IMG/VR virus record: IMGVR_UViG_2713896799_000015
Location: 1 to 41,227 of that record
DNA: 41,227 nt
Origin: a virus
Taxonomy: Duplodnaviria; Heunggongvirae; Uroviricota; Caudoviricetes
Strand: one strand, 5' to 3'
Shown: piece by piece, positions 3,096 to 39,968 of the stretch
How positions within the stretch are numbered: position 1 is the first letter of the stretch
Layout: the number at the start of each line of letters is the position of its first letter
The notes under the pieces: generated by a model
What the model was told of the DNA's origin: nothing
Database searches by the model: none
What the model saw: the letters and a program-made list of their open reading frames with translations, nothing else
Position numbers and translations under genes: made by a program

Positions 3096-3189
3096 CGTTT
3101 AATGTGCATGAAGCCCCACTTAGTTAGTGAAATAACACACATATTAAACCATATATGAATCACATTTAAACGGATAACTCTTCACGAAA

Positions 3190-3240: not shown

Positions 3241-5181
3241 ATGTCTTATTTAAAATACAGAACAGATATTGATGGGCTGCGAGCTATTGCGGTTTTGCTG
3301 GTCGTGCTGTACCACGCAAACTTTCCTATTCATGGTGGTTTTATTGGTGTAGATGTTTTTTTCGTCATATCAGGATATCTCATTACCAACATCATATATA
3401 AAGAGACTAAAAGAAATATTTTTTCATTCCTTAATTTTTACAAACGTCGAATAAAGAGATTGCTCCCAGCTTTTGCTTTTCTTCTTTTATTTTTATTTGT
3501 TTACTGCAAATTATATTTGATGCCAGATGAACTTATATCATTCTCTAAAAGTGCGGTATACGCTCTTCTTGGCATAAGCAATTTCTATTTTTTTAGTAGC
3601 ACAGGTTACTTTAACTCAACCTCTTATGAACCGCTTTTACACACATGGTCGCTTTCCGTTGAAGAGCAGTTCTACATTGTATGGCCTTTCATCGTTTTCA
3701 TGCTCGCTCGGAACTCAGGGACAAAAAAAGCAATAATAATATCCTCATTACTATTTATTGTATTCCTTGGTATTTCACAGTATGGAGCGGTTAATTATAA
3801 AACAGCAGCGTATCTCCTACTGCCTTTTAGGTTCTTTGAGTTGCTCTCAGGTGCCCTACTTGCTATCTATAAAGATTCAATAACAAAACATCTGCGCCAC
3901 GGTTCTGTAATTTCACTGGTCGGCGTAATGCTGATTGTGTTGAGTTCATTATTTATAAATTCTAACACGCCATTTCCTGGGTTCACTGTTTTGCCTACAT
4001 GTTTAGGCGCTGTAATGCTTATTGCTGCAGGTGACTCATCCAAAAACTTCATTTCTAAAGTGCTGTCTTTAACTCCAGTTGTTTATGTAGGAAGAATTTC
4101 CTACTCTCTTTATTTATGGCACTGGCCTGTACTGATTCTTGCTGAATATAGGGGGATCGATCTTACGGCCTTAAATGCGACGGCGCTCATACTTATCGCA
4201 TTCATCATGGCAAGCATAAGCTATCACTTCGTTGAAAAGCCATTTAGGAAGGATTCGCTGCAATATTTCAGGACTGCATTTATAACCATCTACCTGATAC
4301 CATTAATAGTATCCGCTGCCTATGCAGCGTACATTTTAAAAAATGATGGTTTTCGCGCCAAAAGTTCAGAGTTAGTATCTGAATTAGAAGAGAGAAATGC
4401 GACAAATATTATGCGCCCACAGTGTATTGATAAATTATTTATCGGTAATGTAAATGACTGTCATCTTGGCGTTAATAAAGGCGAAGTAGATGGCGTGCTT
4501 CTTGGTGACTCCTTTGGTAATGCATATGCTTACTTTATTGATGAACTTGCGAAAGATGCTGGAATATCAATAACAGATACTACATATAGCTCAACACCTG
4601 TAATATCAGGAATTTATGTGCAGGATATCAGGAATAAGATATCTGACATAGATGCTAACCTGATAATGACATATACAAAAAACAGGCTGGAGTATGCAGC
4701 AAAACAAAAGTTCGCGATAATTTCCGTTTTTTGGGATCAGTACGGGCCACAAAATAATTACTTCCGTATCTTCGATAAAAACGGTGACGTATCGGAGAAT
4801 GCTTACCAGTTGCAATCTGAAGCAATAAAATATCTGCTGTCCAATGGCGTGAAAGTTTACATCATTGCAAGACCTTACCAGTCTATTGGCCCTGCTGCGA
4901 TAAACAAACTGCGCCAAATTAAGCTGCGGCATGGGGATGTAACAACTGAAAAATATGAATACGGCGTAAAGAAAGATGATCGGATAGAATACAAGTTAAA
5001 GCAGGAGTTCCCTCAGATAACGCTAATCGATCCTAACGATGTACTTTGCCACAAAGGGGAATGTGATGCCATCGTGGATGGAAAGATCATTTTCAGAACT
5101 GATGGTTCACACCTGAATGCTGTTGGAGCAAAAAAAATCGGGGAAGAGTATTTGAAAAACTACGCAAACCCATTTCGATAA
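3241..5181 (+). CDS. O-antigen acetyltransferase, OafA/Oac-like (acyltransferase-3 membrane domain plus C-terminal SGNH-type domain)
   Basis: N-terminal RTDIDGLRAIAVLLVVLYHA...GVDVFFVISGYLIT motif, about 10 TM segments, 646 aa; AT-rich and opposite in strand to neighbours (moron). Confidence 0.8.
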   Translation: MSYLKYRTDIDGLRAIAVLLVVLYHANFPIHGGFIGVDVFFVISGYLITNIIYKETKRNIFSFLNFYKRRIKRLLPAFAFLLLFLFVYCKLYLMPDELISFSKSAVYALLGISNFYFFSSTGYFNSTSYEPLLHTWSLSVEEQFYIVWPFIVFMLARNSGTKKAIIISSLLFIVFLGISQYGAVNYKTAAYLLLPFRFFELLSGALLAIYKDSITKHLRHGSVISLVGVMLIVLSSLFINSNTPFPGFTVLPTCLGAVMLIAAGDSSKNFISKVLSLTPVVYVGRISYSLYLWHWPVLILAEYRGIDLTALNATALILIAFIMASISYHFVEKPFRKDSLQYFRTAFITIYLIPLIVSAAYAAYILKNDGFRAKSSELVSELEERNATNIMRPQCIDKLFIGNVNDCHLGVNKGEVDGVLLGDSFGNAYAYFIDELAKDAGISITDTTYSSTPVISGIYVQDIRNKISDIDANLIMTYTKNRLEYAAKQKFAIISVFWDQYGPQNNYFRIFDKNGDVSENAYQLQSEAIKYLLSNGVKVYIIARPYQSIGPAAINKLRQIKLRHGDVTTEKYEYGVKKDDRIEYKLKQEFPQITLIDPNDVLCHKGECDAIVDGKIIFRTDGSHLNAVGAKKIGEEYLKNYANPFR

Positions 5182-5211: not shown

Positions 5212-7443
5212 TTAAGACTTCTTAATGTACGACCATGTAACAGTGGTCGTACCGCTGCTGGTAATAGATATATTCCTTTCTGATGCGCTTGCTGTGAGGA
5301 ACGCCGCAGTCTTCAGCGTCTGGATCATTGCTGTCGTACCATCATAAATTACCAGGAATGAAATCGCGTAGTTTGCACCTCCGCCAGAAACCCACACGTT
5401 AACATCATAAACTCCCTCAGAGTTTGGCAAAGTAAATAGCACGGACGCTACGTTAGCGTTGACCGATTTAGTACCCTTGTCGGTATAGACCGTGGGCACC
5501 TGAAGCCCATTGGCATTTTTATTTTCTACATACCCACCAGCAATAACGCCTGACGTGATGCAGTTCGTGTAGTTAACGTTGCCGGTGCTCACAGTAGAGA
5601 TGGTTGGAGTTCCTCCGGCCGGAGCCTGGAACCGGCAGTTATCTGCATCAACCTGCGAGGTTACATCTGCGTGGATGAATGATGGATAGCCGGCCATTCC
5701 TTCAAAAGCGATCGGCGTACCATCGAAGCTATCTTTGCAGTTCAGCATCTTCACGCGAGATCCATTCATCGCGCGGTAAAAATCAACGATACCATTAGAA
5801 CCACCGAAAGATGTTTTCAACTTGTTGCCAGAACCAACTGCCCCGACTATCGAAACGGTTGAATTATCGAATGTCATAAACGCCACCTCAAGTGCTGAGT
5901 TGTTGTTTATAACGTTCGCCTCACCATCAAAACCGGAGATAAGAAATCCGTGACAATTCGAAAGGTAAATAGCAGACTGACCGATAGACGCGTTGGAGTT
6001 TACTGTCATCTTATCTGCTGCGCAGTTCGTCATCTGCCCTGAAAGGAGGTTTGTTAAATACCACGCGCATACACCCCCCATTACATAGCAGGACTCATAA
6101 TGGATCGTCGTGCCGGTGTTTTTGTAGAAACCACCGCGACTGCGACGCACCCATACATGCTCAAGCCTAGACATATAATTTCCAGAGTCGTCATATACTC
6201 CCCACCATGCCCCATCTATATCGACGTTTTTAATCCTTATCAAACCCGGCGATGTCTCACCACCATTTATAAGAATGCCAATTTTACCGTCGTTTGTGGC
6301 AGCATCTGTTGGATAGTCAATTCCATTCTGATCATAGAAAATATATAAATTCTCAATATTTCCTGAAGCAAAAGACTCTCCATAATGGAAGCACGCTTTA
6401 TTTCCAATTACGGAAATAAAAGTCCCTGATCTGTTTATTATGTTATTACACTCACCGTATACAGTTGCAGATGTATTCATCTTAATAATGTCATTAACAA
6501 AATATGCATTTCCACCTGGAATAAACACATTTCGTCCAGTGTTAATAGCTGCCTGTATTCCTGCGTAGTCAAAAGACTGGGTAAGCGATGTCACAAATGG
6601 ATATACCATTTGTGCTGCTGTCAATGTTGAAAACACTTCGCTTAACTGATGAAGTTTTCCATCGCCTGTAGCACCAAAATCTTTTGCACTAATAAAATCG
6701 CTGTTTTTATCATGCTGTGTACGAATAAATGAACTAATGAAAGGTTGCTTCACCGAGATCAGAGCATCGCCTTTCCCGTCCTCGCCGCTGGCCAACTGGT
6801 TGAATACGTCAGCCGCCGTTCCTGAAGGCACAGGGAACGGAACGGGCTTACCGTTGGCGATGCCGATTATGCTTCCTTCAAGTTGAGCGAGAGGTGGCAG
6901 CGGATCGATATAAGAATCAGGAACACGGATTGTATGGTCGATATTCGATAAAACTGTACTGTCCACATAATTCTTTGTGGATGCATCCTGCGGGTTTACC
7001 GGGTCTTTCAGGTTTCGAATATAGTTGTTCAGCGCGTTATAATAATTTGCCACGAATGACGGCTTGCGCAGCGCCAAGCTAAACCAACTTCGAACCTGCT
7101 GGATCAGCATCGTTAGCTTATCAAAAGCATCCTCATGCACTTCTGCAAAGAACTTACCCTGATTACGCAAATCAGTTTCCTGCGTAACCGGGAGCTCTCG
7201 TGATATAGAAATCTGGTAACCGTTAGCTAACGCCTTCGACAGAATTACATTACCGCCGTTATATCCACCAGCCCCAGTGACAGTGTAATCAGTATCAAGA
7301 GCCAGCACAGCGATATTTTCGTCAAGGTCAACCACCTGCACTACCAGATCAGATTCCTTGAAAACCCTAAAGGTATAAGGGAATGAAGTCGTAACGCCAT
7401 TGCCTGTGTATTCGTTGTGGTCAACTTCGGTTGAGACCGTCAT
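5212..7443 (-). CDS. Tailspike / tail fiber protein
   Basis: N-terminus (YTGNGVTTSFPYTFRVF...) resembles the T7 gp17-type adaptor domain; long Gly/Asn-rich beta-helix-like body; last gene of the T7-like structural order. Confidence 0.7.
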   Translation of the reverse strand: MTVSTEVDHNEYTGNGVTTSFPYTFRVFKESDLVVQVVDLDENIAVLALDTDYTVTGAGGYNGGNVILSKALANGYQISISRELPVTQETDLRNQGKFFAEVHEDAFDKLTMLIQQVRSWFSLALRKPSFVANYYNALNNYIRNLKDPVNPQDASTKNYVDSTVLSNIDHTIRVPDSYIDPLPPLAQLEGSIIGIANGKPVPFPVPSGTAADVFNQLASGEDGKGDALISVKQPFISSFIRTQHDKNSDFISAKDFGATGDGKLHQLSEVFSTLTAAQMVYPFVTSLTQSFDYAGIQAAINTGRNVFIPGGNAYFVNDIIKMNTSATVYGECNNIINRSGTFISVIGNKACFHYGESFASGNIENLYIFYDQNGIDYPTDAATNDGKIGILINGGETSPGLIRIKNVDIDGAWWGVYDDSGNYMSRLEHVWVRRSRGGFYKNTGTTIHYESCYVMGGVCAWYLTNLLSGQMTNCAADKMTVNSNASIGQSAIYLSNCHGFLISGFDGEANVINNNSALEVAFMTFDNSTVSIVGAVGSGNKLKTSFGGSNGIVDFYRAMNGSRVKMLNCKDSFDGTPIAFEGMAGYPSFIHADVTSQVDADNCRFQAPAGGTPTISTVSTGNVNYTNCITSGVIAGGYVENKNANGLQVPTVYTDKGTKSVNANVASVLFTLPNSEGVYDVNVWVSGGGANYAISFLVIYDGTTAMIQTLKTAAFLTASASERNISITSSGTTTVTWSYIKKS

Positions 7444-7547
7444 GTTAAATCTCCAGATAGTCGCAGCACCCGTTGCGCCGCATATCTGGTTATTCTATTA
7501 CCTGAAAAACCATATATGGATAGAAAGGCTGTAAATACGAATAGATA

Positions 7548-7562
7548 TTACCTTTCAGGTAA
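7548..7562. promoter_or_regulatory. Operator TTACCTTTCAGGTAA (perfect)
   Basis: 15-bp palindrome; the 16-mer ATTACCTTTCAGGTAA is identical to the copy at 25375-25390. Confidence 0.6.
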
Positions 7563-7599
7563 TTTGCAAAACGTGCTGGATAGCAAACAAATTATTTGC

Positions 7600-7619
7600 T
7601 ACTGTATAAATATACAGTT
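7600..7619. promoter_or_regulatory. LexA (SOS) box
   Basis: TACTGTATAAATATACAGTT matches consensus TACTGTATATATATACAGTA at 18 of 20 positions; 20 bp upstream of the 7640 ATG. Confidence 0.75.
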
Positions 7620-7639
7620 ATTGCATGGAGAAGATTAAG

Positions 7640-7897
7640 ATGCAGCAGTATCACTATCCACTGGAAGACGGATTTACCGAAAGGATTCACACGCCGGGAG
7701 GCGTCAGGTCACTGGTGGAGGGATCGCACTTGATGAAATTACTCCGGGATCTCGATAAGGATGGATTTAATGTCGATGGCCCACTTGCCGAACTGACTGC
7801 ACTGATTAACTACGTCACCAGCTCACAGATGTCTATGCGGGATCTGCAAACACATCTCGACTATTGTGCCGAACAATTACGAAAACAAACCCGGTAA
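7640..7897 (+). CDS. Small antirepressor-like protein (stand-alone homolog of Ant C-terminal domain)
   Basis: GGAG 9 nt upstream of ATG; aligns with the last ~85 residues of the 312-aa Ant (shared YxYPL, IHxPxGV, LMKLL, DG, AELT, RDxQTH). Confidence 0.55.
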   Translation: MQQYHYPLEDGFTERIHTPGGVRSLVEGSHLMKLLRDLDKDGFNVDGPLAELTALINYVTSSQMSMRDLQTHLDYCAEQLRKQTR

Positions 7898-7904
7898 ATT
7901 TAAA

Positions 7905-7920
7905 GGCCGCAAGAGCGGCC
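7905..7920. terminator. Hairpin GGCCGC-AAGA-GCGGCC downstream of ant (minus) and of the small gene (plus)
   Basis: On the minus strand the stem is followed by TTTAAATTT. Confidence 0.45.
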
Positions 7921-7921
7921 T

Positions 7922-7933
7922 GTGACATGTCAC
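7922..7933. repeat. Palindrome GTGACATGTCAC, copy 1 of 3
   Basis: Perfect 12-bp palindrome 1 nt from the hairpin; same 12-mer at 26364 and 28628. Confidence 0.7.
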
Positions 7934-7971
7934 GCTAGTTTCGTTTTGCACGTCCCTGTGCCGCCGTTCTG

Positions 7972-8910
7972 TCAGAAGAACCCTGCCTTGTCGTTGATGT
8001 ATTCCGCGTGCGTCTGGATATCACGCAGGCATTTGCTCACACCGACGATGTAGCAGAACATGGTGGTCAGCTCCGCCGCCGCGCCCGATACATCGTGCCC
8101 GTCTTCCTGTAACTGGTTCAGCAGTTTCATCAGCAGTGAGTTCTCCGTCAGGCCGAGAACACCCGACGGCGAATGAATCAGACTGCGGTAGCCTGGCTTC
8201 AATGGATAACCATAACATTTTGTCTGTGTTTTAATTGCCTCACGAAGCGCATCTAACATCTTGACTGCCACTTCATCATTCTCTGATGCAGATCCAGCAG
8301 GGAGATACTCCCCTTCAAGCGGAACCCGAGCAACAAGAGACAACGCTTCGGCAAATTGATCTTCACCAATTTCTTTGTACGAACAGCCAAAATGAGATTT
8401 CAGTGACGACCACATGGTGATCATCGCCTTAGCCTGTTTTTCTTTTGGCAGAGACTGACCGCGACTCATGACGAGTTGTTTAATGGCTTCCTGCTGTTCA
8501 GTTGTTATTTTACCCGGCAACGCCTTTTTAGCTTTGCGTGGGTTAACCACATGGCCTTTAGTCCAGTACTCGTAGAGCACATCGTCACACTCTTCCTGAT
8601 ACTGGATTACCTTGTCGCGGATTTCAGGGCGGACTTTGTTAGGGCTGATGCTGTTCAACCAAGCTGCCAATTTTCGTAAAGCCATACAAATCATGGCTTG
8701 CACCCCACCGGCAGAAGGTATGGTGATTTCCACCATACCCTTCGAGAAGCGTTGAGAAATCTTCTTATGTTGAGATTTCCAGTCTAGCCCCATTCCCTCA
8801 ACGATAGGTTTCATTGGGGTATACGGTTCGCCGTTGTGATTGACAACATAAAGCTCTGCGCCGTGGAATGGCACGTTGATAGTAGATACTGCTGTTGCTA
8901 TACTCGTCAT
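7972..8910 (-). CDS. Antirepressor Ant
   Basis: 312 aa, directly downstream of an Arc-like gene as in P22 immI; C-terminal domain shared with the small LexA-linked gene. Confidence 0.65.
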   Translation of the reverse strand: MTSIATAVSTINVPFHGAELYVVNHNGEPYTPMKPIVEGMGLDWKSQHKKISQRFSKGMVEITIPSAGGVQAMICMALRKLAAWLNSISPNKVRPEIRDKVIQYQEECDDVLYEYWTKGHVVNPRKAKKALPGKITTEQQEAIKQLVMSRGQSLPKEKQAKAMITMWSSLKSHFGCSYKEIGEDQFAEALSLVARVPLEGEYLPAGSASENDEVAVKMLDALREAIKTQTKCYGYPLKPGYRSLIHSPSGVLGLTENSLLMKLLNQLQEDGHDVSGAAAELTTMFCYIVGVSKCLRDIQTHAEYINDKAGFF

Positions 8911-8958
8911 GTCGTTAATTCCTATACGTAGTTTTACGATACTGAAGCCCTGACGGTC

Positions 8959-8973
8959 TGGCCACCGTGGGGC
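8959..8973. promoter_or_regulatory. Mnt/Arc-type operator-like site (core CCACCGTGGGGC)
   Basis: Shares 12 bp with the 9165-9179 palindrome; lies between arc and ant. Confidence 0.4.
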
Positions 8974-8982
8974 TTCGCTGTT

Positions 8983-9150
8983 TTATGCCACGCTATTCTT
9001 CTCACCAGTGAGTCCATACACTTTCCTCAGCTGATAGATAATCTCTGTATTGAACTTTCGGCATTCTTTTTCGCCATTTCTTTCAATAGCTAACTTCACA
9101 TCGTCCGGAAAACGAACTCGTCGTTGACACATCTCTTTTGCTTTTTGCAT
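8983..9150 (-). CDS. Arc-like ribbon-helix-helix repressor
   Basis: 55 aa from ATG at 9150 with AAGGAG RBS; RVRFPDDVKLAIERNGEKECRKFNTEIIYQL resembles the P22 Arc fold signature. Confidence 0.55.
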   Translation of the reverse strand: MQKAKEMCQRRVRFPDDVKLAIERNGEKECRKFNTEIIYQLRKVYGLTGEKNSVA

Positions 9151-9164
9151 TTCATATCTCCTTA

Positions 9165-9179
9165 GCCCCACCGTGGGGC
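9165..9179. promoter_or_regulatory. Perfect 15-bp palindrome GCCCCACCGTGGGGC (Mnt-operator-like)
   Basis: In the divergent arc/mnt control region; central CACCGTG recalls the P22 Omnt core (from memory). Confidence 0.5.
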
Positions 9180-9270
9180 AAAATAATTGTCACACCGTGC
9201 GTCATTGATGTCAAGCACACGGTGAGGCATACTTCAATCATTGCAAGTAACTCAATATTTGGTGAAGAAC

Positions 9271-9702
9271 ATGAGCAGAGAAGATCCACAACTAAGGATC
9301 AGACTTCCCGTCGAAGTAAAAGAAAAAATAGAAATTTCTGCAAAAGCCAATAAGCGATCAATGAACGCTGAAATAGTACAACGTCTTGACACCAGCTTTC
9401 TGAAAGATATTCATGAAGATGACGTAATTTCTGCTTATGAAGCAAAAATCATTGCAAACAATGCACGACATGAAATATCAAATATTATTTTCAAAAGAAC
9501 CTTTAATGAAATTAATAAGAAAATAACACTTGGACATACAAGTTTTTATATAAACCTTAATGACCTTGAACTGGAATCACTTGCAGATAATGATTACCAG
9601 ATCATCTTTGAAAAAACATTTAATAAGCTCAATGAACTAGGTTACATCATCTGTGAAAACTCATGGGATGCAGATGGTTTTGGAATTGAAATACCTGAAT
9701 AG
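9271..9702 (+). CDS. Mnt-like RHH repressor with ~70-aa AT-rich C-terminal extension
   Basis: N-terminus MSREDPQLRIRLPVEVKEKIEISAKANKRSMNAEIVQRL parallels P22 Mnt; protein is 143 aa versus 82 for Mnt. Confidence 0.5.
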   Translation: MSREDPQLRIRLPVEVKEKIEISAKANKRSMNAEIVQRLDTSFLKDIHEDDVISAYEAKIIANNARHEISNIIFKRTFNEINKKITLGHTSFYINLNDLELESLADNDYQIIFEKTFNKLNELGYIICENSWDADGFGIEIPE

Positions 9703-19579: not shown

Positions 19580-20184
19580 CAGGACAACCTCGCAATGGTA
19601 AACTCGTCAACCGGTGGCTGTGGTTCCTGTGATTCATTCTGGCTATGCGAGCCAGCACTAAGAATCACGCGATTGTACATATTGAGAGCAAATGTACCGA
19701 GATCCGCATTCCCAGTCAGCGCCATGTTAATGGCTGCCGCAAGACGCCAGGCCAACGCCTCCATAAAAATGGCATCAAACATGTTCACATCTGAAACGCG
19801 AGAGACATACTTGAGCCATGCCTGCGGCTGGTCTGTGTAGATCAACTTTCCTGTTCCGTCGGTGTCTGCACCAACTTCGTACTGAACGCGCATTGCTGCT
19901 GTTGGATTGCGTACACCAGGAAGCATAATTTCAGTAATGCGCAGACAATCGGACGGGTACTGGTACGCATATTCCCAGTCAGGCGGTGGATTGCTCGTAT
20001 CTGCAAGCGCCACGCGTTTGGTAGCAAAGTTCCAGTCAAAATCAGAAAGCACAGCATCACGGCAGGCCTCAAAGTGCAGCGAACATTCCCCCGCTTCCTT
20101 GCTGGCTTCCGTCAGGCTGTTAATGCTGCGGCTATTGCCAATATTGGACAGCGCACGATTGCAGATCTCTACTACAGAGGCCAT
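19579..20184 (-). CDS. Tail tubular protein A (gatekeeper)
   Basis: 201 aa, size and position match T7 gp11. Confidence 0.5.
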   Translation of the reverse strand: MASVVEICNRALSNIGNSRSINSLTEASKEAGECSLHFEACRDAVLSDFDWNFATKRVALADTSNPPPDWEYAYQYPSDCLRITEIMLPGVRNPTAAMRVQYEVGADTDGTGKLIYTDQPQAWLKYVSRVSDVNMFDAIFMEALAWRLAAAINMALTGNADLGTFALNMYNRVILSAGSHSQNESQEPQPPVDEFTIARLS

Positions 20185-25285: not shown

Positions 25286-25353
25286 ATCAATGACTCCGTA
25301 CGCAATTAAATTATTATCAATTTAACCACATATGATTTATTTATCGTAGAAGG

Positions 25354-25712: not shown

Positions 25713-25789
25713 GTGGCATTAGCTCAGTCGGACAGAGCAACCGCCTTCTAAGCGGTTGGTCGCAGGTTCGAATCCTGCATGCCACGCCA
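25713..25789 (+). tRNA. tRNA-Arg (anticodon UCU)
   Basis: 77-nt cloverleaf: acceptor GTGGCAT/ATGCCAC, anticodon stem ACCGC/GCGGT, loop CTTCTAA, T-arm GCAGG-TTCGAAT-CCTGC, encoded CCA. Confidence 0.85.
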
Positions 25790-25876: not shown

Positions 25877-25952
25877 AGCAGGACGCCATTGCGATGACTT
25901 CATGCTGTAAACCCGTACAGCCACGGAAGGCATAACTCATTGCTTCCAGTTC

Positions 25953-32262: not shown

Positions 32263-32607
32263 TCAGAACTTTTCGATGTTCCAGCCACCACCTGCTTTCT
32301 TTGGTTTAACCGTTACCCCGATGATTCGGAACGGATACTGATCTGCGGCGACTTTGGTTTTCACCCTGGCGTCGTCGGTCCAGAAACCTTTCACTTCGTG
32401 CAGTTCCATCTCGCCGGTGGCGAGCATCACAGCAAAATCGGGCGTATAGAACGTGTTGTCAGCTAACCGCAACTTGATACCCTCAAATCGATACCAGACG
32501 ATTTCTCCTGCACGTTTACGCAGCTCAAGGTGCTGGCAATACGCAGATTCTGTTTTGTTCATCTGGCCTGTTTTGAGTCGACCAAGAGCCTGTATCTGTT
32601 TTCTCAT
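32263..32607 (-). CDS. DUF1064-type phage protein
   Basis: 114 aa, common small protein of lambdoid replication regions (family call by recollection). Confidence 0.45.
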   Translation of the reverse strand: MRKQIQALGRLKTGQMNKTESAYCQHLELRKRAGEIVWYRFEGIKLRLADNTFYTPDFAVMLATGEMELHEVKGFWTDDARVKTKVAADQYPFRIIGVTVKPKKAGGGWNIEKF

Positions 32608-32610
32608 GAT

Positions 32611-32688
32611 TTACCCCTTAGGTAATTAAAAACCACATAAGACATGAAATCAATAGAAATTAGAACATTTTATTACCTACAAGGTAAT
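32611..32688. promoter_or_regulatory. Two perfect operators (TTACCCCTTAGGTAA 32611-32625; TTACCTACAAGGTAA 32674-32688)
   Basis: First copy starts 4 bp from the ATG of the 32607 gene and covers its RBS; both lie in a 117-bp gap between same-strand genes. Confidence 0.55.
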
Positions 32689-34337: not shown

Positions 34338-34538
34338 TCAGCTTGAGTGTTGTGGGGAGGAATTAATCATGATCTGCTTAATCTCTGCCCTGATGCGACG
34401 GTTTGATTCCATGGTGCACTCAACACAGTGTCCGTTGTAAACCCAGCGTTCACTGTCATGTCCGTGCTTACATGGTTTTCCGGTGTAGTAGCGTTTAAGT
34501 CCGCGCTTTGCGGCATCAATACGTGTAATGATTTCCAT
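34338..34538 (-). CDS. Small zinc-ribbon protein (candidate early regulator)
   Basis: Start taken at MEIITR; CKHGH...CVEC motif. Confidence 0.35.
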   Translation of the reverse strand: MEIITRIDAAKRGLKRYYTGKPCKHGHDSERWVYNGHCVECTMESNRRIRAEIKQIMINSSPQHSS

Positions 34539-34618
34539 GGTAAGCCCTGTTATTAGTATTGGGATTACGGTTATTTTGTGCTGACACAAAAAAAAGATCA
34601 ACCATATTTGGTTTTTTA

Positions 34619-34688: not shown

Positions 34689-34919
34689 TCATGAGTAGAA
34701 GAAGTATGCCAATTCTGCTTTTGAGCGCAGCCATTGTCTTGATTTACAGGCTTTAAAAAGCCCATCCATCAATACCTTACCTGGCATTTTGCGCTTACCT
34801 GTTAAGTGAGTCTGGATATAGTGACTCGTCGTTCCGGCTTCCTGTGCGAAGGCTTCACGCTCATCCGGAGTAAGTGCAAGCCAGTGCTTTTTGAAATCGA
34901 AATGTCCGTTATCGCTCAT
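34689..34919 (-). CDS. Cro-like HTH regulator
   Basis: 76 aa, divergent from the repressor, reads toward replication genes; a hairpin (34649-34666) follows it. Confidence 0.5.
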   Translation of the reverse strand: MSDNGHFDFKKHWLALTPDEREAFAQEAGTTSHYIQTHLTGKRKMPGKVLMDGLFKACKSRQWLRSKAELAYFFYS

Positions 34920-34955
34920 AGCTATTGCCTGATATTTATTTCAGATAATAAATAT

Positions 34956-35019
34956 TCACCTATAAGGTAACAAAAATCAAGGATAGTTACCCATGAGGTG
35001 CATTTACCTGTTGGGTAAT
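34956..35019. promoter_or_regulatory. Operator cluster (OR-like): three sites between cro-like and repressor genes
   Basis: TCACCTATAAGGTAA (34956-34970), TTACCCATGAGGTGC (34987-35001), TTACCTGTTGGGTAA (35005-35019). Confidence 0.6.
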
Positions 35020-35073: not shown

Positions 35074-35658
35074 ATGAAAAGTATCCAGGACGTCCGCAGG
35101 CAAAATCTCAACGACTTGATCGACCGTGAATTCAATGGTGTTCAGACGCGGATGGCTGAAAAACTTGGAACTCAGGCAAATCTGGTAAACCGCTGGGCTC
35201 TTGGCAAGAAGGTTATCGGCGACCAGGTTGCGCGAAAAATTGAAGCTGCCGCCAATAAACCCCGTAACTGGCTTGATATCGATCGCTCGCTTTCTCAGGA
35301 AGGTTTTCAGCCTGTCGGACCAAGCGACATTGGTCAACTGGCGGCTCACAACCTGGAACGCTGGATGAGCGAAAGCCGCGACCTTTCAACGCAGGGAAAA
35401 CTTCACCGCGCATCCGGCGTCGCCCAGGTGACAATCAGCCGCCTGTTAAACAATGAGGTCAGCGTTTCCATTTCCACCCTGGAGAATGTTGCATCCGCAT
35501 TCGGGCGTCACGGCTATGAATTACTGATTCACCCGCACGACCCTGCGACTATCAACTATGACCGCTCGCGCTACGCTTTGTTACCCGAAACCGAGAAAGC
35601 AAAGATCGAAAGTTACATTGAATTTGTCATCAACCAGAACGAAAAAAACAAACAATAA
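35074..35658 (+). CDS. Prophage repressor, tandem HTH, no peptidase domain
   Basis: Two XRE-type HTH segments in 194 aa; no S24 Ser/Lys autopeptidase region; flanked by operator clusters. Confidence 0.55.
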   Translation: MKSIQDVRRQNLNDLIDREFNGVQTRMAEKLGTQANLVNRWALGKKVIGDQVARKIEAAANKPRNWLDIDRSLSQEGFQPVGPSDIGQLAAHNLERWMSESRDLSTQGKLHRASGVAQVTISRLLNNEVSVSISTLENVASAFGRHGYELLIHPHDPATINYDRSRYALLPETEKAKIESYIEFVINQNEKNKQ

Positions 35659-35705: not shown

Positions 35706-35715
35706 GCCTGTTAGA

Positions 35716-35792
35716 TTACCTAACAGGTAATTTTTTTAACTCATATCTATTGACATCAAACCAGATACGCATAATTATTACCTCAACGGTAA
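35716..35792. promoter_or_regulatory. Operator pair (OL-like) with TTGACA promoter element between them
   Basis: TTACCTAACAGGTAA (35716-35730) and TTACCTCAACGGTAA (35778-35792); TTGACA at 35750-35755. Confidence 0.6.
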
Positions 35793-35811
35793 CAAACCGA
35801 GGTAACAAGTT

Positions 35812-38011: not shown

Positions 38012-38260
38012 ATGAAAGGTGCATTAGGTAAGAAAGAACTCCTGGCGGTGGTGCCACTGTCATGGAGCACTATCGACCGTATGGAGCGCGCAGGGGAATT
38101 TCCTAAACGCTGGTATATCACCGATAAACGCTGCGCATGGAACCGTGATGAAGTTGAGCGTTGGCTTGATGAACGTCAGGCAGCAAGCCCGGCAGAGTTC
38201 CAGGGTAAAAAGCCTCCTGTTCAGCAACGTGTATATCGTCCCGTGAGCAACGCTGCATGA
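38012..38260 (+). CDS. AlpA-type excisionase / regulator
   Basis: LSWSTIDRMERAGEFPKRWYITDKRCAWNRDEVERWL fits the AlpA pattern; partners with a P4-type integrase. Confidence 0.5.
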   Translation: MKGALGKKELLAVVPLSWSTIDRMERAGEFPKRWYITDKRCAWNRDEVERWLDERQAASPAEFQGKKPPVQQRVYRPVSNAA

Positions 38261-38369
38261 GTGCGCTGCTAAGGCACTGGAGCAAATGGTCAGGATGGTA
38301 CTTATTCCTGGCCTCTGTTTCAGCATGGCTTTATCTGCTGGCATTAATTTTCAGAGAGGGTTGGATTAA

Positions 38370-38669
38370 GTGAGAAAGTTAAGCCGACTTGAAAAATATC
38401 ACATGAATAAGGTTTCAATGCGCAGTCCGTCAAAGATTGTCGCCGTTACTCCTGCGGCGATAGAGATCGAAAAACGCGCGATTGAAAGAGAGAAAAAAGG
38501 GCAATTCCGCATTGCCGCTCACCTTTGGCTTCAGTGTATGGATGTTGCTTCTGGTGATGTTGAACGTGCAAGGATCGCGGTTCGCAGGGACCAATGTATC
38601 ACAAAAGGTAACGGCCTTCGCCGTGGCGACTATAGCGGCATAGGATGTTGTGGGGTGGTTTATGACTAA
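38370..38669 (+). CDS. Hypothetical protein
   Basis: 99-aa ORF in operon. Confidence 0.35.
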   Translation: MRKLSRLEKYHMNKVSMRSPSKIVAVTPAAIEIEKRAIEREKKGQFRIAAHLWLQCMDVASGDVERARIAVRRDQCITKGNGLRRGDYSGIGCCGVVYD

Positions 38670-39312
38670 GAAATACACACTAATCTATGCAGATCCACCC
38701 TGGGTATACCGGGACAAAGCCGCAGATGGTAATCGCGGTGCCGGTTTTAAATATCCGGTTATGAGTGTGCTGGATATCTGCCGCCTTCCTGTGTGGGATT
38801 TGGCCGATGAAAACTGTCTGTTGGCCATGTGGTGGGTGCCAACACAACCACTCGAAGCACTAAAAGTTGTTGAAGCCTGGGGATTCCGTCTGATGACGAT
38901 GAAGGGCTTCACGTGGATAAAATGTGGTAGTCGACAACCAGATAAACTGGTTATGGGTATGGGACACATGACTCGCGCCAATAGTGAAGATTGCCTGTTT
39001 GCGGTAAAGGGAAAACTACCTACGCGCATTAATGCAGGGATCGTTCAGTCATTTACCGCACCGCGGCTTGAGCATTCAAGAAAGCCAGATATCGTTCGTG
39101 AAAAACTTGTGCAATTATTAGGCGATGTTTCTCGCATTGAACTGTTCGCCCGCCAGACGTCTCATGGCTTCGATGTTTGGGGTAATCAGTGCGAAGACCC
39201 GGCAGTGCAACTACACCCTGGATACGCGTTGGATATCGGCGGATTAACAAATGCATTCAGCAATGCTCCGCTGTCACCAACAGACAACCAGGGGCGGGAG
39301 CGTGCAGCATGA
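38662..39312 (+). CDS. MT-A70-family DNA N6-adenine methyltransferase
   Basis: IYADPPW catalytic motif near the N-terminus; no nearby restriction gene. Confidence 0.65.
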
Positions 39313-39968
39313 ACCTATATCAACGCATCAATGGCGCTGACTGGTGCAATATCTTCGTCGTCGGCGATCTGCATGGGTGCTACACGCTGCTGATGAACGA
39401 ACTCGACAAAGTTTCATTCGACCCGGCGCGCGATTTGCTTATTTCCGTTGGTGACCTTGTTGACCGCGGCGCTGAAAACGTCGAATGCCTGGATTTGATT
39501 ACTATGCCGTGGTTCCGAGCTGTTCGTGGCAACCATGAGCAGATGATGCTGGATGCACTGGTCAACGGCGGAAGTTTCGGACATTGGATGTCAAACGGCG
39601 GTGGATGGTGGCACCAACTTGATTCTGAGCAGGATGTGCAACTCAAATACATTCTGCCAAAGGTTACCAACCTCCCGATGATTATCGAACTGGTTACCGG
39701 CAATAAGAAGGTCGTCATCTGCCACGCAGACTACCCGCACAACGAATACGCATTCGATAAGCCAGTACCGGAAGAAATGGTGATATGGAATCGTGAGCGG
39801 GTTAGCGACGCGCAGGACGGTATTGTCTCGGAGATAACCGGTGCCGATTTGTTCATCTTCGGTCATACGCCAGCACATCACCCACTGGTGTATGCAAACC
39901 AAATGTACATCGACACCGGCGCAGTGTTCTGCGGAAATCTGACGCTTACCAAAGTCCAGGAAGGATAG
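39309..39968 (+). CDS. Ser/Thr protein phosphatase (lambda PPase / PrpA-like)
   Basis: GDLHGC, GDLVDRG, GNHE metallophosphatase motifs; ATGA overlap with methylase gene. Confidence 0.7.

Follow-up and report, generated by a model that had tools for sequence, protein, structure and literature searches.

[quoted passage not shown] As summarised in later work that cites Kim & Ryu 2013, Lemire 2011 and Shearwin 1998, LexA self-cleavage is the trigger and the antirepressor then inhibits the repressor by protein-protein contact. A LexA-repressed small antirepressor directed against a non-cleavable repressor has already been characterised in the Salmonella phage SPC32H (Kim & Ryu 2013, J Virol 87:11775; Kim et al. 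2016, PNAS 113:E2480; PDB 5D50, with Ant as chains E-H, and 5D4Z). SPC32H Rep is described as binding DNA as a tetramer, and tetrameric Ant as binding two Rep dimers and breaking the Rep tetramer.

We analysed a stretch of viral DNA of 41,227 nucleotides (the window) which, judged by its sequence, is a prophage of the phiV10/epsilon15 type (genus Uetakevirus). Positions 7547-7897 of the window are predicted to be the phiV10-type E. coli counterpart of the SPC32H ant switch and a member of the SPC32H Ant/Rep/LexA system. The arrangement is a rediscovery of the one known from SPC32H and no new wiring. The locus is not novel because its nearest relative is the SPC32H Ant family rather than Gifsy GfoA/GftA or 186 Tum. 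A first-pass annotation of this DNA had proposed that the prophage is induced through a LexA-derepressed small antirepressor acting on a repressor that does not cleave itself. Orthology with the Ant, Rep and LexA components of SPC32H strongly supports this putative route. The comparison with the Gifsy phages and 186 Tum that the annotation had offered has to be replaced by the closer one with SPC32H Ant.

The gene ant (7640..7897, + strand) encodes a small antirepressor of the SPC32H Ant family. As annotated before, the gene encodes 85 aa and lies 20 nt past a LexA box, with its ATG at 7640 and a stop codon that ends at 7897. A Shine-Dalgarno sequence, GGAG (7627..7630, +), can be read directly ahead of the ATG and is kept in the relatives. 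An open reading frame of 90 aa could also be started at 7625, where an ATG is in frame here, yet this ATG is out of frame in all aligned relatives and the start was therefore placed at 7640. The small Ant is 86% identical to SPC32H Ant across the full length of the two proteins (85 aa versus 86 aa). It matches PDB 5D50 chain E, which is SPC32H Ant in the structure solved with its repressor, with E=1.6e-46, and phrog_450 with E=2.4e-48 (match at 5-90 of its 88 positions). Searched against Pfam, the protein reached no family at threshold (ANT/KilAC PF03374, P22_AR_N PF10547, P22_AR_C PF10548 and Bro-N PF02498 were all absent), and at E<=0.1 the sole match was a sub-threshold DUF724. No NCBIfam model matched either. 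The term 'Ant-domain' that had been attached to this gene is thus justified by homology to a structurally solved antirepressor, but not by any Pfam antirepressor domain at threshold.

The gene is located between the injection-protein genes and the tailspike gene, from which it diverges, and is separated from the repressor gene rep by 27 kb. The position between injection-protein genes and tailspike is the same in 15 relatives and in distant homologues. The tailspike gene itself (5212..7443, - strand) was taken from the list of open reading frames, and the N-terminus of its product is homologous to the epsilon15 and phiV10 tailspikes. The 197-bp spacer between tailspike and ant carries, from left to right, a half-site TATTACC, AACCATATATGGAT, ATTACCTTTCAGGTAAT, CTGGATAG, the LexA box, GGAG and the ATG. 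Order and positions of these elements are kept in all 15 relatives, which comprise nine phages and six prophages of other genera. The latter were added from Citrobacter (two), Erwinia, Superficieibacter, Pseudocitrobacter and Scandinavium, so that the comparison spans Escherichia, Salmonella, Enterobacter, Klebsiella and these five genera.

The LexA box, TACTGTATAAATATACAGTT (7600..7619), agrees with the consensus TACTGTATATATATACAGTA at 18 of 20 positions, as had been noted. We scored LexA sites with a symmetrised weight matrix built from 20 E. coli LexA sites. With 27.3 bits the box is the top-scoring site of the window and exceeds every site of the training set. The runner-up in the window reached 15.0 bits and the maximum over 200 shuffled sequences was 21.3 bits, so that the box scored above all 200 shuffles. 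The bare pattern CTGT-N8-ACAG is not significant by itself (2 matches versus 0.53 expected, with >=2 matches in 9 of 100 shuffles). Its second occurrence, at 25905, was rejected as a LexA site on account of a GC-rich centre, a score of 10.8 bits and the adjoining tRNA-Arg region. The runner-up at 4061 was rejected as well, being located within an acyltransferase gene and scoring below the 95th percentile of the shuffles.

The position of the LexA box is kept in the 15 relatives, and its distance to the ATG is the same in SPC32H. Indeed, the box aligns base for base with that of SPC32H, including the position that is mutated in SPC32N. Across an aligned stretch of 1050 bp we found two base differences between SPC32N and SPC32H. 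One of them, a change from C to A in SPC32N, hits the CAG arm of the corresponding LexA box, and the Rep operator of SPC32N is intact. Over their whole genomes the two phages reportedly differ at just two nucleotides, and the change in the LexA box is said to result in constitutive Ant and lytic growth. Among 76 near-identical IMG/VR copies of the locus, both arms of the LexA box are intact in 75, with variation confined to the central spacer, and the operator half-sites are kept as well. Such retention of box arms and operator half-sites is the pattern expected of functional sites and would fit that role here. Both ant and its LexA box are under evident purifying selection.

A generic sigma-70 scan of positions 7300-8000 on both strands found no promoter, suggesting that the ant promoter is weak or non-canonical. 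Because of this negative scan, the promoter positions given here are those indicated by conservation. The 9 aligned relatives agree fully in CTGGATAG and in T.TG.TA, and the 17 nt between the two are fixed in length and variable in sequence. We therefore propose a candidate ant promoter (7577..7605, +) that consists of a -35 element TGGATA (7577-7582), a 17-nt spacer and an extended -10 element TGcTACTGT (7597-7605). The LexA box overlaps this putative -10 and start region.

The second component, rep (35074..35658, + strand), encodes a prophage repressor of 194 aa with two domains of the HTH type. Pfam yielded HTH families only (HTH_3 and related) and no Peptidase_S24, in line with the earlier statement that the repressor does not possess an S24 autopeptidase. 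Rep is 100% identical to the phiV10 repressor and matches SPC32H Rep (PDB 5D50_A) with E=4e-42. Its identity to SPC32H Rep is 41% overall, 53% in the N-terminal alignment columns 1-72 and 37% in the C-terminal columns 101-200. The C-terminal part of Rep is said to be the domain that is bound by Ant. Since Rep is only 41% identical to its SPC32H counterpart, and 37% identical in the C-terminal part, the pairing of Ant and Rep in this phage is one that we infer.

We consider it highly probable that a mechanism of the SPC32H type, with ant as the SOS sensor of the prophage, is the best explanation of the locus. In a lysogen, host LexA bound to 7600-7619 would keep the weak ant promoter silent. 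DNA damage would lead to RecA-stimulated self-cleavage of LexA and hence to transcription of ant. The 85-aa Ant would then bind the non-cleavable Rep, and Rep would leave its ATTACC-N5-GGTAAT operators so that the lytic genes could be expressed. Of these steps, the repression of ant by LexA and the breaking apart of tetrameric Rep by tetrameric Ant are taken from the SPC32H literature and are inferred by analogy for this phage. The behaviour of related prophages in E. coli fits such a mechanism. Phage ZX5, which encodes the same Rep as the window and a small Ant that is 98.8% identical, is induced by mitomycin C to 1e9 PFU/ml. In gut isolates, a microcin that damages DNA induces prophages of the phiV10 species 21- to 47-fold.

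Downstream of ant, the window carries a complete P22-type immI module (mnt/arc/sar/ant) at 7972-9702. It consists of an Mnt-like protein that contains an Arc domain (9241-9702, +), an Arc-like protein (8983-9171, -), the sar antisense RNA (8912-8979; Rfam RF00262, 44.8 bits) and an immI Ant of 312 aa with a P22_AR_N domain (7972-8910, -; Pfam E=5.7e-45). The N-terminal two thirds of the immI Ant show 94% DNA identity to the ant gene of CUS-3, and over its final 76 residues the protein shares 45% identity with the small Ant. The same Ant-like C-terminal domain is found in the Bro-N antirepressor of Tyrion (40% identity), and the Bro-N counterpart in phiV10 carries a truncated copy of it. The fusion of P22_AR_N or Bro-N to an Ant-like C-terminal domain suggests that the Ant fold of roughly 80 aa is a portable Rep-targeting module, which is used on its own under LexA and also, in larger proteins with a different N-terminal domain, under other regulation.

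The immI Ant (7972-8910) is a further antirepressor of the prophage and could contribute to induction. Going further, one may ask whether the small Ant is the operative inducer at all. Induction might instead run through the immI antirepressor, with its Mnt/Arc/sar control, or another route, and the small gene might be a conserved passenger or act on co-resident prophages. Three observations would be in keeping with this. The 312-aa protein carries its Ant-like C-terminal domain within a complete immI module; overexpression of ZX5 ORF4, which is a larger antirepressor, has a Bro domain at its N-terminus and corresponds to the Bro-N proteins of phiV10 and Tyrion that carry the Ant-like C-terminal domain, causes a shift toward lysis; and Ant is conserved at 86% versus only 37% for the C-terminal part of Rep. 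However, the immI module is accessory: SPC32H, epsilon15 and BUCT554 lack it and have the small ant only. Induction of SPC32H is reported to run through the small Ant. The purifying selection on the small ant and its LexA box also argues against a passenger. In addition, the weight-matrix scan of the window found no LexA box near the immI genes and the module alone therefore cannot explain inducibility by the SOS response. That something other than the small Ant serves as the operative inducer is, in our view, very improbable.

The assignment has a practical consequence for annotation. Public records label the small Ant of the phiV10 lineage a 'hypothetical protein', as is the case for ant in E. 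coli, phiV10, TL-2011b and ZX5. These genes can be named SPC32H-type SOS antirepressors, and this would explain how mitomycin C, colicins and microcins can induce such prophages despite their non-cleavable repressors. Of the complete E. coli genomes, 531 of 5426, about one in ten, carry this gene. A tblastn search with the small Ant matched only phage records of the Uetakevirus type, 35 in number and several of them hit at two or three places; P22-like phages were not among them. Scans for Ant homologues found 6 loci with the same architecture in genome contigs and 80 near-identical copies in viral contigs, and a profile search of 1.8 billion representatives yielded only 63 clusters at 50% identity. 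Among five distant standalone homologues, three are located beside a tailspike-sized gene and a fourth lies on a contig that is too short to judge. The one homologue in a different setting (L107) lies ahead of a lysis cassette, and beside this gene a LexA box is missing, as is a clean operator.

We then considered the operator in the spacer (ATTACCTTTCAGGTAAT, 7547..7563), a perfect palindrome of 17 bp that is kept in the 15 relatives. The first-pass annotation had placed a perfect operator upstream of the LexA box. The site is indeed present; its start is 7547, one base from the 7548 given before, and it lies 36 nt before the box. ATTACC-N5-GGTAA with <=1 mismatch identifies 11 distinct sites in the window versus 0.4 matches expected, and none of 100 shuffles did as well. 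The site at 7547-7563 is thus a genuine Rep-type site as far as its sequence pattern can tell. The set of operators predicted for this phage is that of epsilon15-like phages, with the 17-bp palindrome found around rep and cro as well as at the syntenic intergenic places. Two operators are located between the cro-like gene (34689-34919, -) and rep, a weaker one at 34955-34971 and one at 35003-35019, and are syntenic with SPC32H sites at 34389, 34406 and 34436. Another two (35715-35731 and 35777-35793) follow rep at a distance of 62 bp from each other, flank a TTGACA promoter for the early-left genes, and are syntenic with 'repressor' sites of epsilon15 at 32479-32632. Further operators precede the gene for the small terminase subunit, gp3-portal, a gene of the DUF1064 family (32263-32607; the epsilon15 counterpart is annotated as RuvC-like) and the lysis cassette.

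For the site beside ant, the GenBank record of epsilon15 (AY150271.2) already annotates the homologue, which is syntenic with 7547-7563: a protein_bind feature at 19895-19911, labelled 'repressor / lysogeny' and located in the interval from gp19, which encodes the Ant ortholog, to the tailspike gene. The record gives the same annotation to sites ahead of its terminase, gp3 and RuvC-like genes and to those next to the gene for the repressor. SPC32H has the same operator set as epsilon15, with the consensus ATTACC-N5-GGTAAT and an operator at 20012 that is syntenic with 7547-7563.

What the operator beside ant controls is a separate question. On its tailspike side lies a second conserved and recurrent motif, the quasi-palindrome AACCATATATGGAT (7508..7521). 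A search of the window with AACCAYATATGRWT returned 8 strand-matches, corresponding to 4 sites, versus 1.9 expected (0 of 100 shuffles). All 4 sites adjoin a Rep operator and do so on its late-gene side. The pairs of operator and second motif are found at the lysis cassette (3189/3147), the tailspike (7547/7508), gp3-portal (25375/25324) and the gene after cro (34618/34600), and all four places with an operator and AACCAYATATGR are syntenic in epsilon15 and SPC32H. Candidate binders of AACCAYATATGR are the cro-like protein (34689-34919) and a PerC-like protein (38370-38669). Still closer to the tailspike gene, an operator half-site ATTACC (7497-7502) overlaps a candidate tailspike -10 element TAGAAT (7497-7492, -), forming a conserved block at 7492..7502 (-). 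All 9 aligned relatives share TATTACC, and 8 of them also have the ATTCTA before it, where BUCT554 reads AGTTTATTACC; the block is also present in the six prophages of other genera.

Taken together, these elements make us lean, with modest conviction, towards a role in the control of the divergent late promoter of the tailspike gene. Operator, second motif and half-site/-10 block would then keep the tailspike off in the lysogen, and ant would be controlled by LexA only. The recurrence of the module of operator and AACCAYATATGR ahead of four late-side gene blocks, at syntenic places in epsilon15 and SPC32H, argues for this. So does a GC-rich hairpin between the two convergent ant genes (7904..7921, -), which was found in a terminator scan and is terminator-like on the - strand. 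It folds with -17.1 kcal/mol (z = -2.7), and in the records of epsilon15 and phiV10 the corresponding position, past the last injection-protein gene, is annotated as a terminator. As the terminator-like 7921-7904 precedes ant in the late direction, the tailspike gene would need a promoter of its own in the spacer. The divergent spacer between oac and the lysis genes offers a parallel, with the same order of elements and an operator 36 nt before the oac ATG. In the phiV10 record, oac is annotated as acetylating the host O-antigen and as acting in superinfection immunity. This annotation implies that oac is expressed in the lysogen, and the operator between oac and the lysis genes must therefore act on the late side.

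The position of the operator relative to ant points in the same direction. It ends 13 nt before the proposed ant -35 element and does not overlap the core promoter. SPC32N, in which the operator is intact and the LexA box is mutated, is likewise consistent with control of ant by LexA, given that its Ant is reportedly constitutive. On the other hand, the scan found no canonical sigma-70 promoter for the tailspike gene either, and its -10 and -35 elements are proposed ones. Moreover, the spacing between operator and LexA box is kept as strictly as that between operator and tailspike, so that conservation cannot discriminate between the two sides. A single site in a divergent spacer could also serve both promoters.

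Dual control of ant by LexA and the repressor had been put forward as a notable wiring. We find it unproven and probably misassigned, as the operator lies beyond the proposed ant core promoter and recurs at late-gene blocks. Under dual control, Rep bound at 7547-7563 would also modulate the ant promoter, damping or stimulating it from about -57, as the operator is centred about 57 bp upstream of the putative ant start. A perfect operator 36 nt ahead of the LexA box, at a distance that is fixed in 15 of 15 relatives, would agree with this, and so would the operator half-sites kept in the IMG/VR copies. In addition, the Rep tetramer is described as able to engage two DNA sites (attributed to Kim et al. 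2016), and looping between the operator and the half-site, which are 50 bp apart, could thus act on both promoters. Nevertheless, repression by Rep cannot by itself suffice to silence ant, since cleavage of LexA would then never be able to start induction. The operator is outside the proposed core promoter of ant, and a module that recurs at late-gene blocks accounts for the operator without any role for ant. SPC32N again weighs against Rep as a second regulator, having lost the LexA binding site alone, with the operator intact and Ant said to be constitutive. Overall, we consider modulation of ant by Rep rather doubtful, and continue to favour the tailspike promoter as the target of the operator.

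Were Rep nonetheless to damp ant, the two proteins would oppose each other, with Rep damping ant and Ant removing Rep behind a LexA gate. Such mutual inhibition could create a bistable, self-reinforcing commitment as well as cross-induction of heteroimmune co-resident prophages, a combination that we regard as unlikely. If true, it would mean a sharper commitment to induction after DNA damage. Cross-induction between heteroimmune prophages may be possible because two Rep immunity types share a near-identical Ant and one operator consensus.

Compared with the systems described before, the locus follows the same logic as Gifsy, 186 Tum and N15 AntC: an antirepressor gene with a LexA box is located far from the immunity region and the repressor is inactivated by protein binding. 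A comparison of domains and PHROG families detected no sequence relationship of these antirepressors to the small Ant, and the PHROG family is a different one. 186 Tum has a DinI-like C-terminal half, and the small Ant is without a DinI-like domain. In the Gifsy phages, the antirepressor is encoded in a dinI-led operon beside replication genes (PMC3121763), whereas here it is a single gene beside the tailspike gene with no adjacent dinI homologue. The immI Ant of P22 also acts on the prophage repressor, but the small Ant does not contain P22_AR_N and would be controlled by LexA instead of Mnt/Arc. The closest system is SPC32H, likewise a Uetakevirus. There, too, ant diverges from the tailspike gene, the gene order and the distance from LexA box to ATG are the same, and ATTACC-N5-GGTAAT is found at syntenic places. 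The two differ in that SPC32H is a Salmonella phage whereas the phage described here has an E. coli host, in that Rep is of the phiV10 immunity type here, and in the extra P22-type immI module downstream of ant, which is present here only. Ant homology, LexA box, Rep type and genomic position nevertheless all place the locus with the SPC32H type.

Beside the small SPC32H-type ant gene, the window carries a complete immI module of the P22 type (7972-9702). This module comprises the gene for a 312-aa immI Ant with a P22_AR_N N-terminus (7972-8910, minus strand), a sar antisense RNA on the plus strand (8912-8979; 44.8 bits to Rfam RF00262) and the genes for an Arc-like protein (8983-9171, minus strand) and for a Mnt-like protein with an Arc domain (9241-9702, plus strand). 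The immI Ant is a chimera in which the P22_AR_N N-terminus is joined to a C-terminus similar to the small Ant. The DNA encoding the N-terminus shares 94% identity with CUS-3 ant, and the final 76 aa of the protein are 45% identical to the small Ant. Because of this resemblance at the C-terminus, the prophage possesses two antirepressors with one common domain. The two differ in their control, which is exerted by LexA for the small Ant and by Mnt, Arc and sar for the immI Ant. In other Uetakeviruses, an Ant-like domain also forms the C-terminal end of Bro-N-type 'anti-immunity' proteins. We found it in Tyrion gp20 (comparison locus L018, 20417-21121; 40% identity over 78 aa) and, as a truncated copy, in phiV10p23 (comparison locus L017, 19646-20230). 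That Bro-N-type proteins end in this domain suggests that it could serve as a portable module for targeting repressors.

In more distant lineages, namely those of BUCT711 (L006/L019), Superficieibacter (L013), a metagenome (L101) and Yersinia (L104, CP009997.1), ATGT or TTGT replaces CTGT as the left arm of the LexA box. All of these retain ACAG as the right arm, together with the operator and the half-site on the tailspike side. Judging from the altered arm, SOS control may be weaker or altered in these lineages. At L110, the locus of one distant Ant homolog, neither a recognisable LexA box nor an ATTACC operator was found. The window contains a single further CTGT-N8-ACAG site (25905-25920), which at 10.8 bits is not LexA-like. 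It lies close beside a tRNA-Arg gene (anticodon TCT, 25713-25789), which is located in non-coding DNA separating the terminase block from the portal block. At the syntenic place, SPC32H likewise carries a tRNA-Arg.

Rep-type operators are not limited to the immunity region and also precede late and middle gene blocks of the window. Such operators lie at 3189, 25375, 28517/28535, 32610/32672 and 34618, and the blocks behind them are the lysis cassette, gp3-portal, the gene for the small terminase subunit, a gene of the DUF1064 family (its epsilon15 counterpart is RuvC-like) and the gene that follows cro. The operator pairs 32610/32672 and 35715/35777 are both spaced by exactly 62 bp. Taken together, the positions ahead of late and middle blocks and the shared spacing of the two pairs imply that many promoters would be under direct Rep control, or else that Rep tetramers would engage in looping.

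Near these operators we noticed a second, quasi-palindromic motif, AACCAYATATGRWT, with four sites in the window (3147-3160, 7508-7521, 25324-25337 and 34600-34613), which gives 8 strand-matches where 1.9 are expected. Every site lies 18-51 bp, start to start, from a Rep operator, always on its late-gene side (4/4), and all four are syntenic in epsilon15 and SPC32H. Candidates for binding AACCAYATATGRWT are a cro-like protein and the PerC-like transcriptional activator (38370-38669). The latter is encoded in the early-left region (38012-39968) along with an AlpA-like regulator (38012-38260) and a calcineurin-like metallophosphatase (39309-39968).

The gene for a 646-aa O-antigen acyltransferase (Acyl_transf_3 plus SGNH; 3241-5181) runs against the late genes. 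A Rep operator ends 36 nt ahead of the ATG of this lysogenic-conversion gene, which would have to be expressed in spite of so near a Rep site. Beyond the lysis cassette, whose Rz-like ORF spans 1289-1771, two plus-strand ORFs resembling secreted proteins or lipoproteins (1-516 and 532-1071) are probably host or cargo genes.

Between E. coli and Salmonella phages (window versus comparison loci L016 and L009), Ant shows 86% identity, whereas for Rep the figure is only 41%, and 37% in its C-terminal part. Rep falls into two immunity types, one comprising the window, phiV10 and Tyrion and the other epsilon15, SPC32H and BUCT711. As Ant is nearly identical in both types and their operator half-sites are the same, co-resident Uetakevirus prophages could possibly cross-induce one another.
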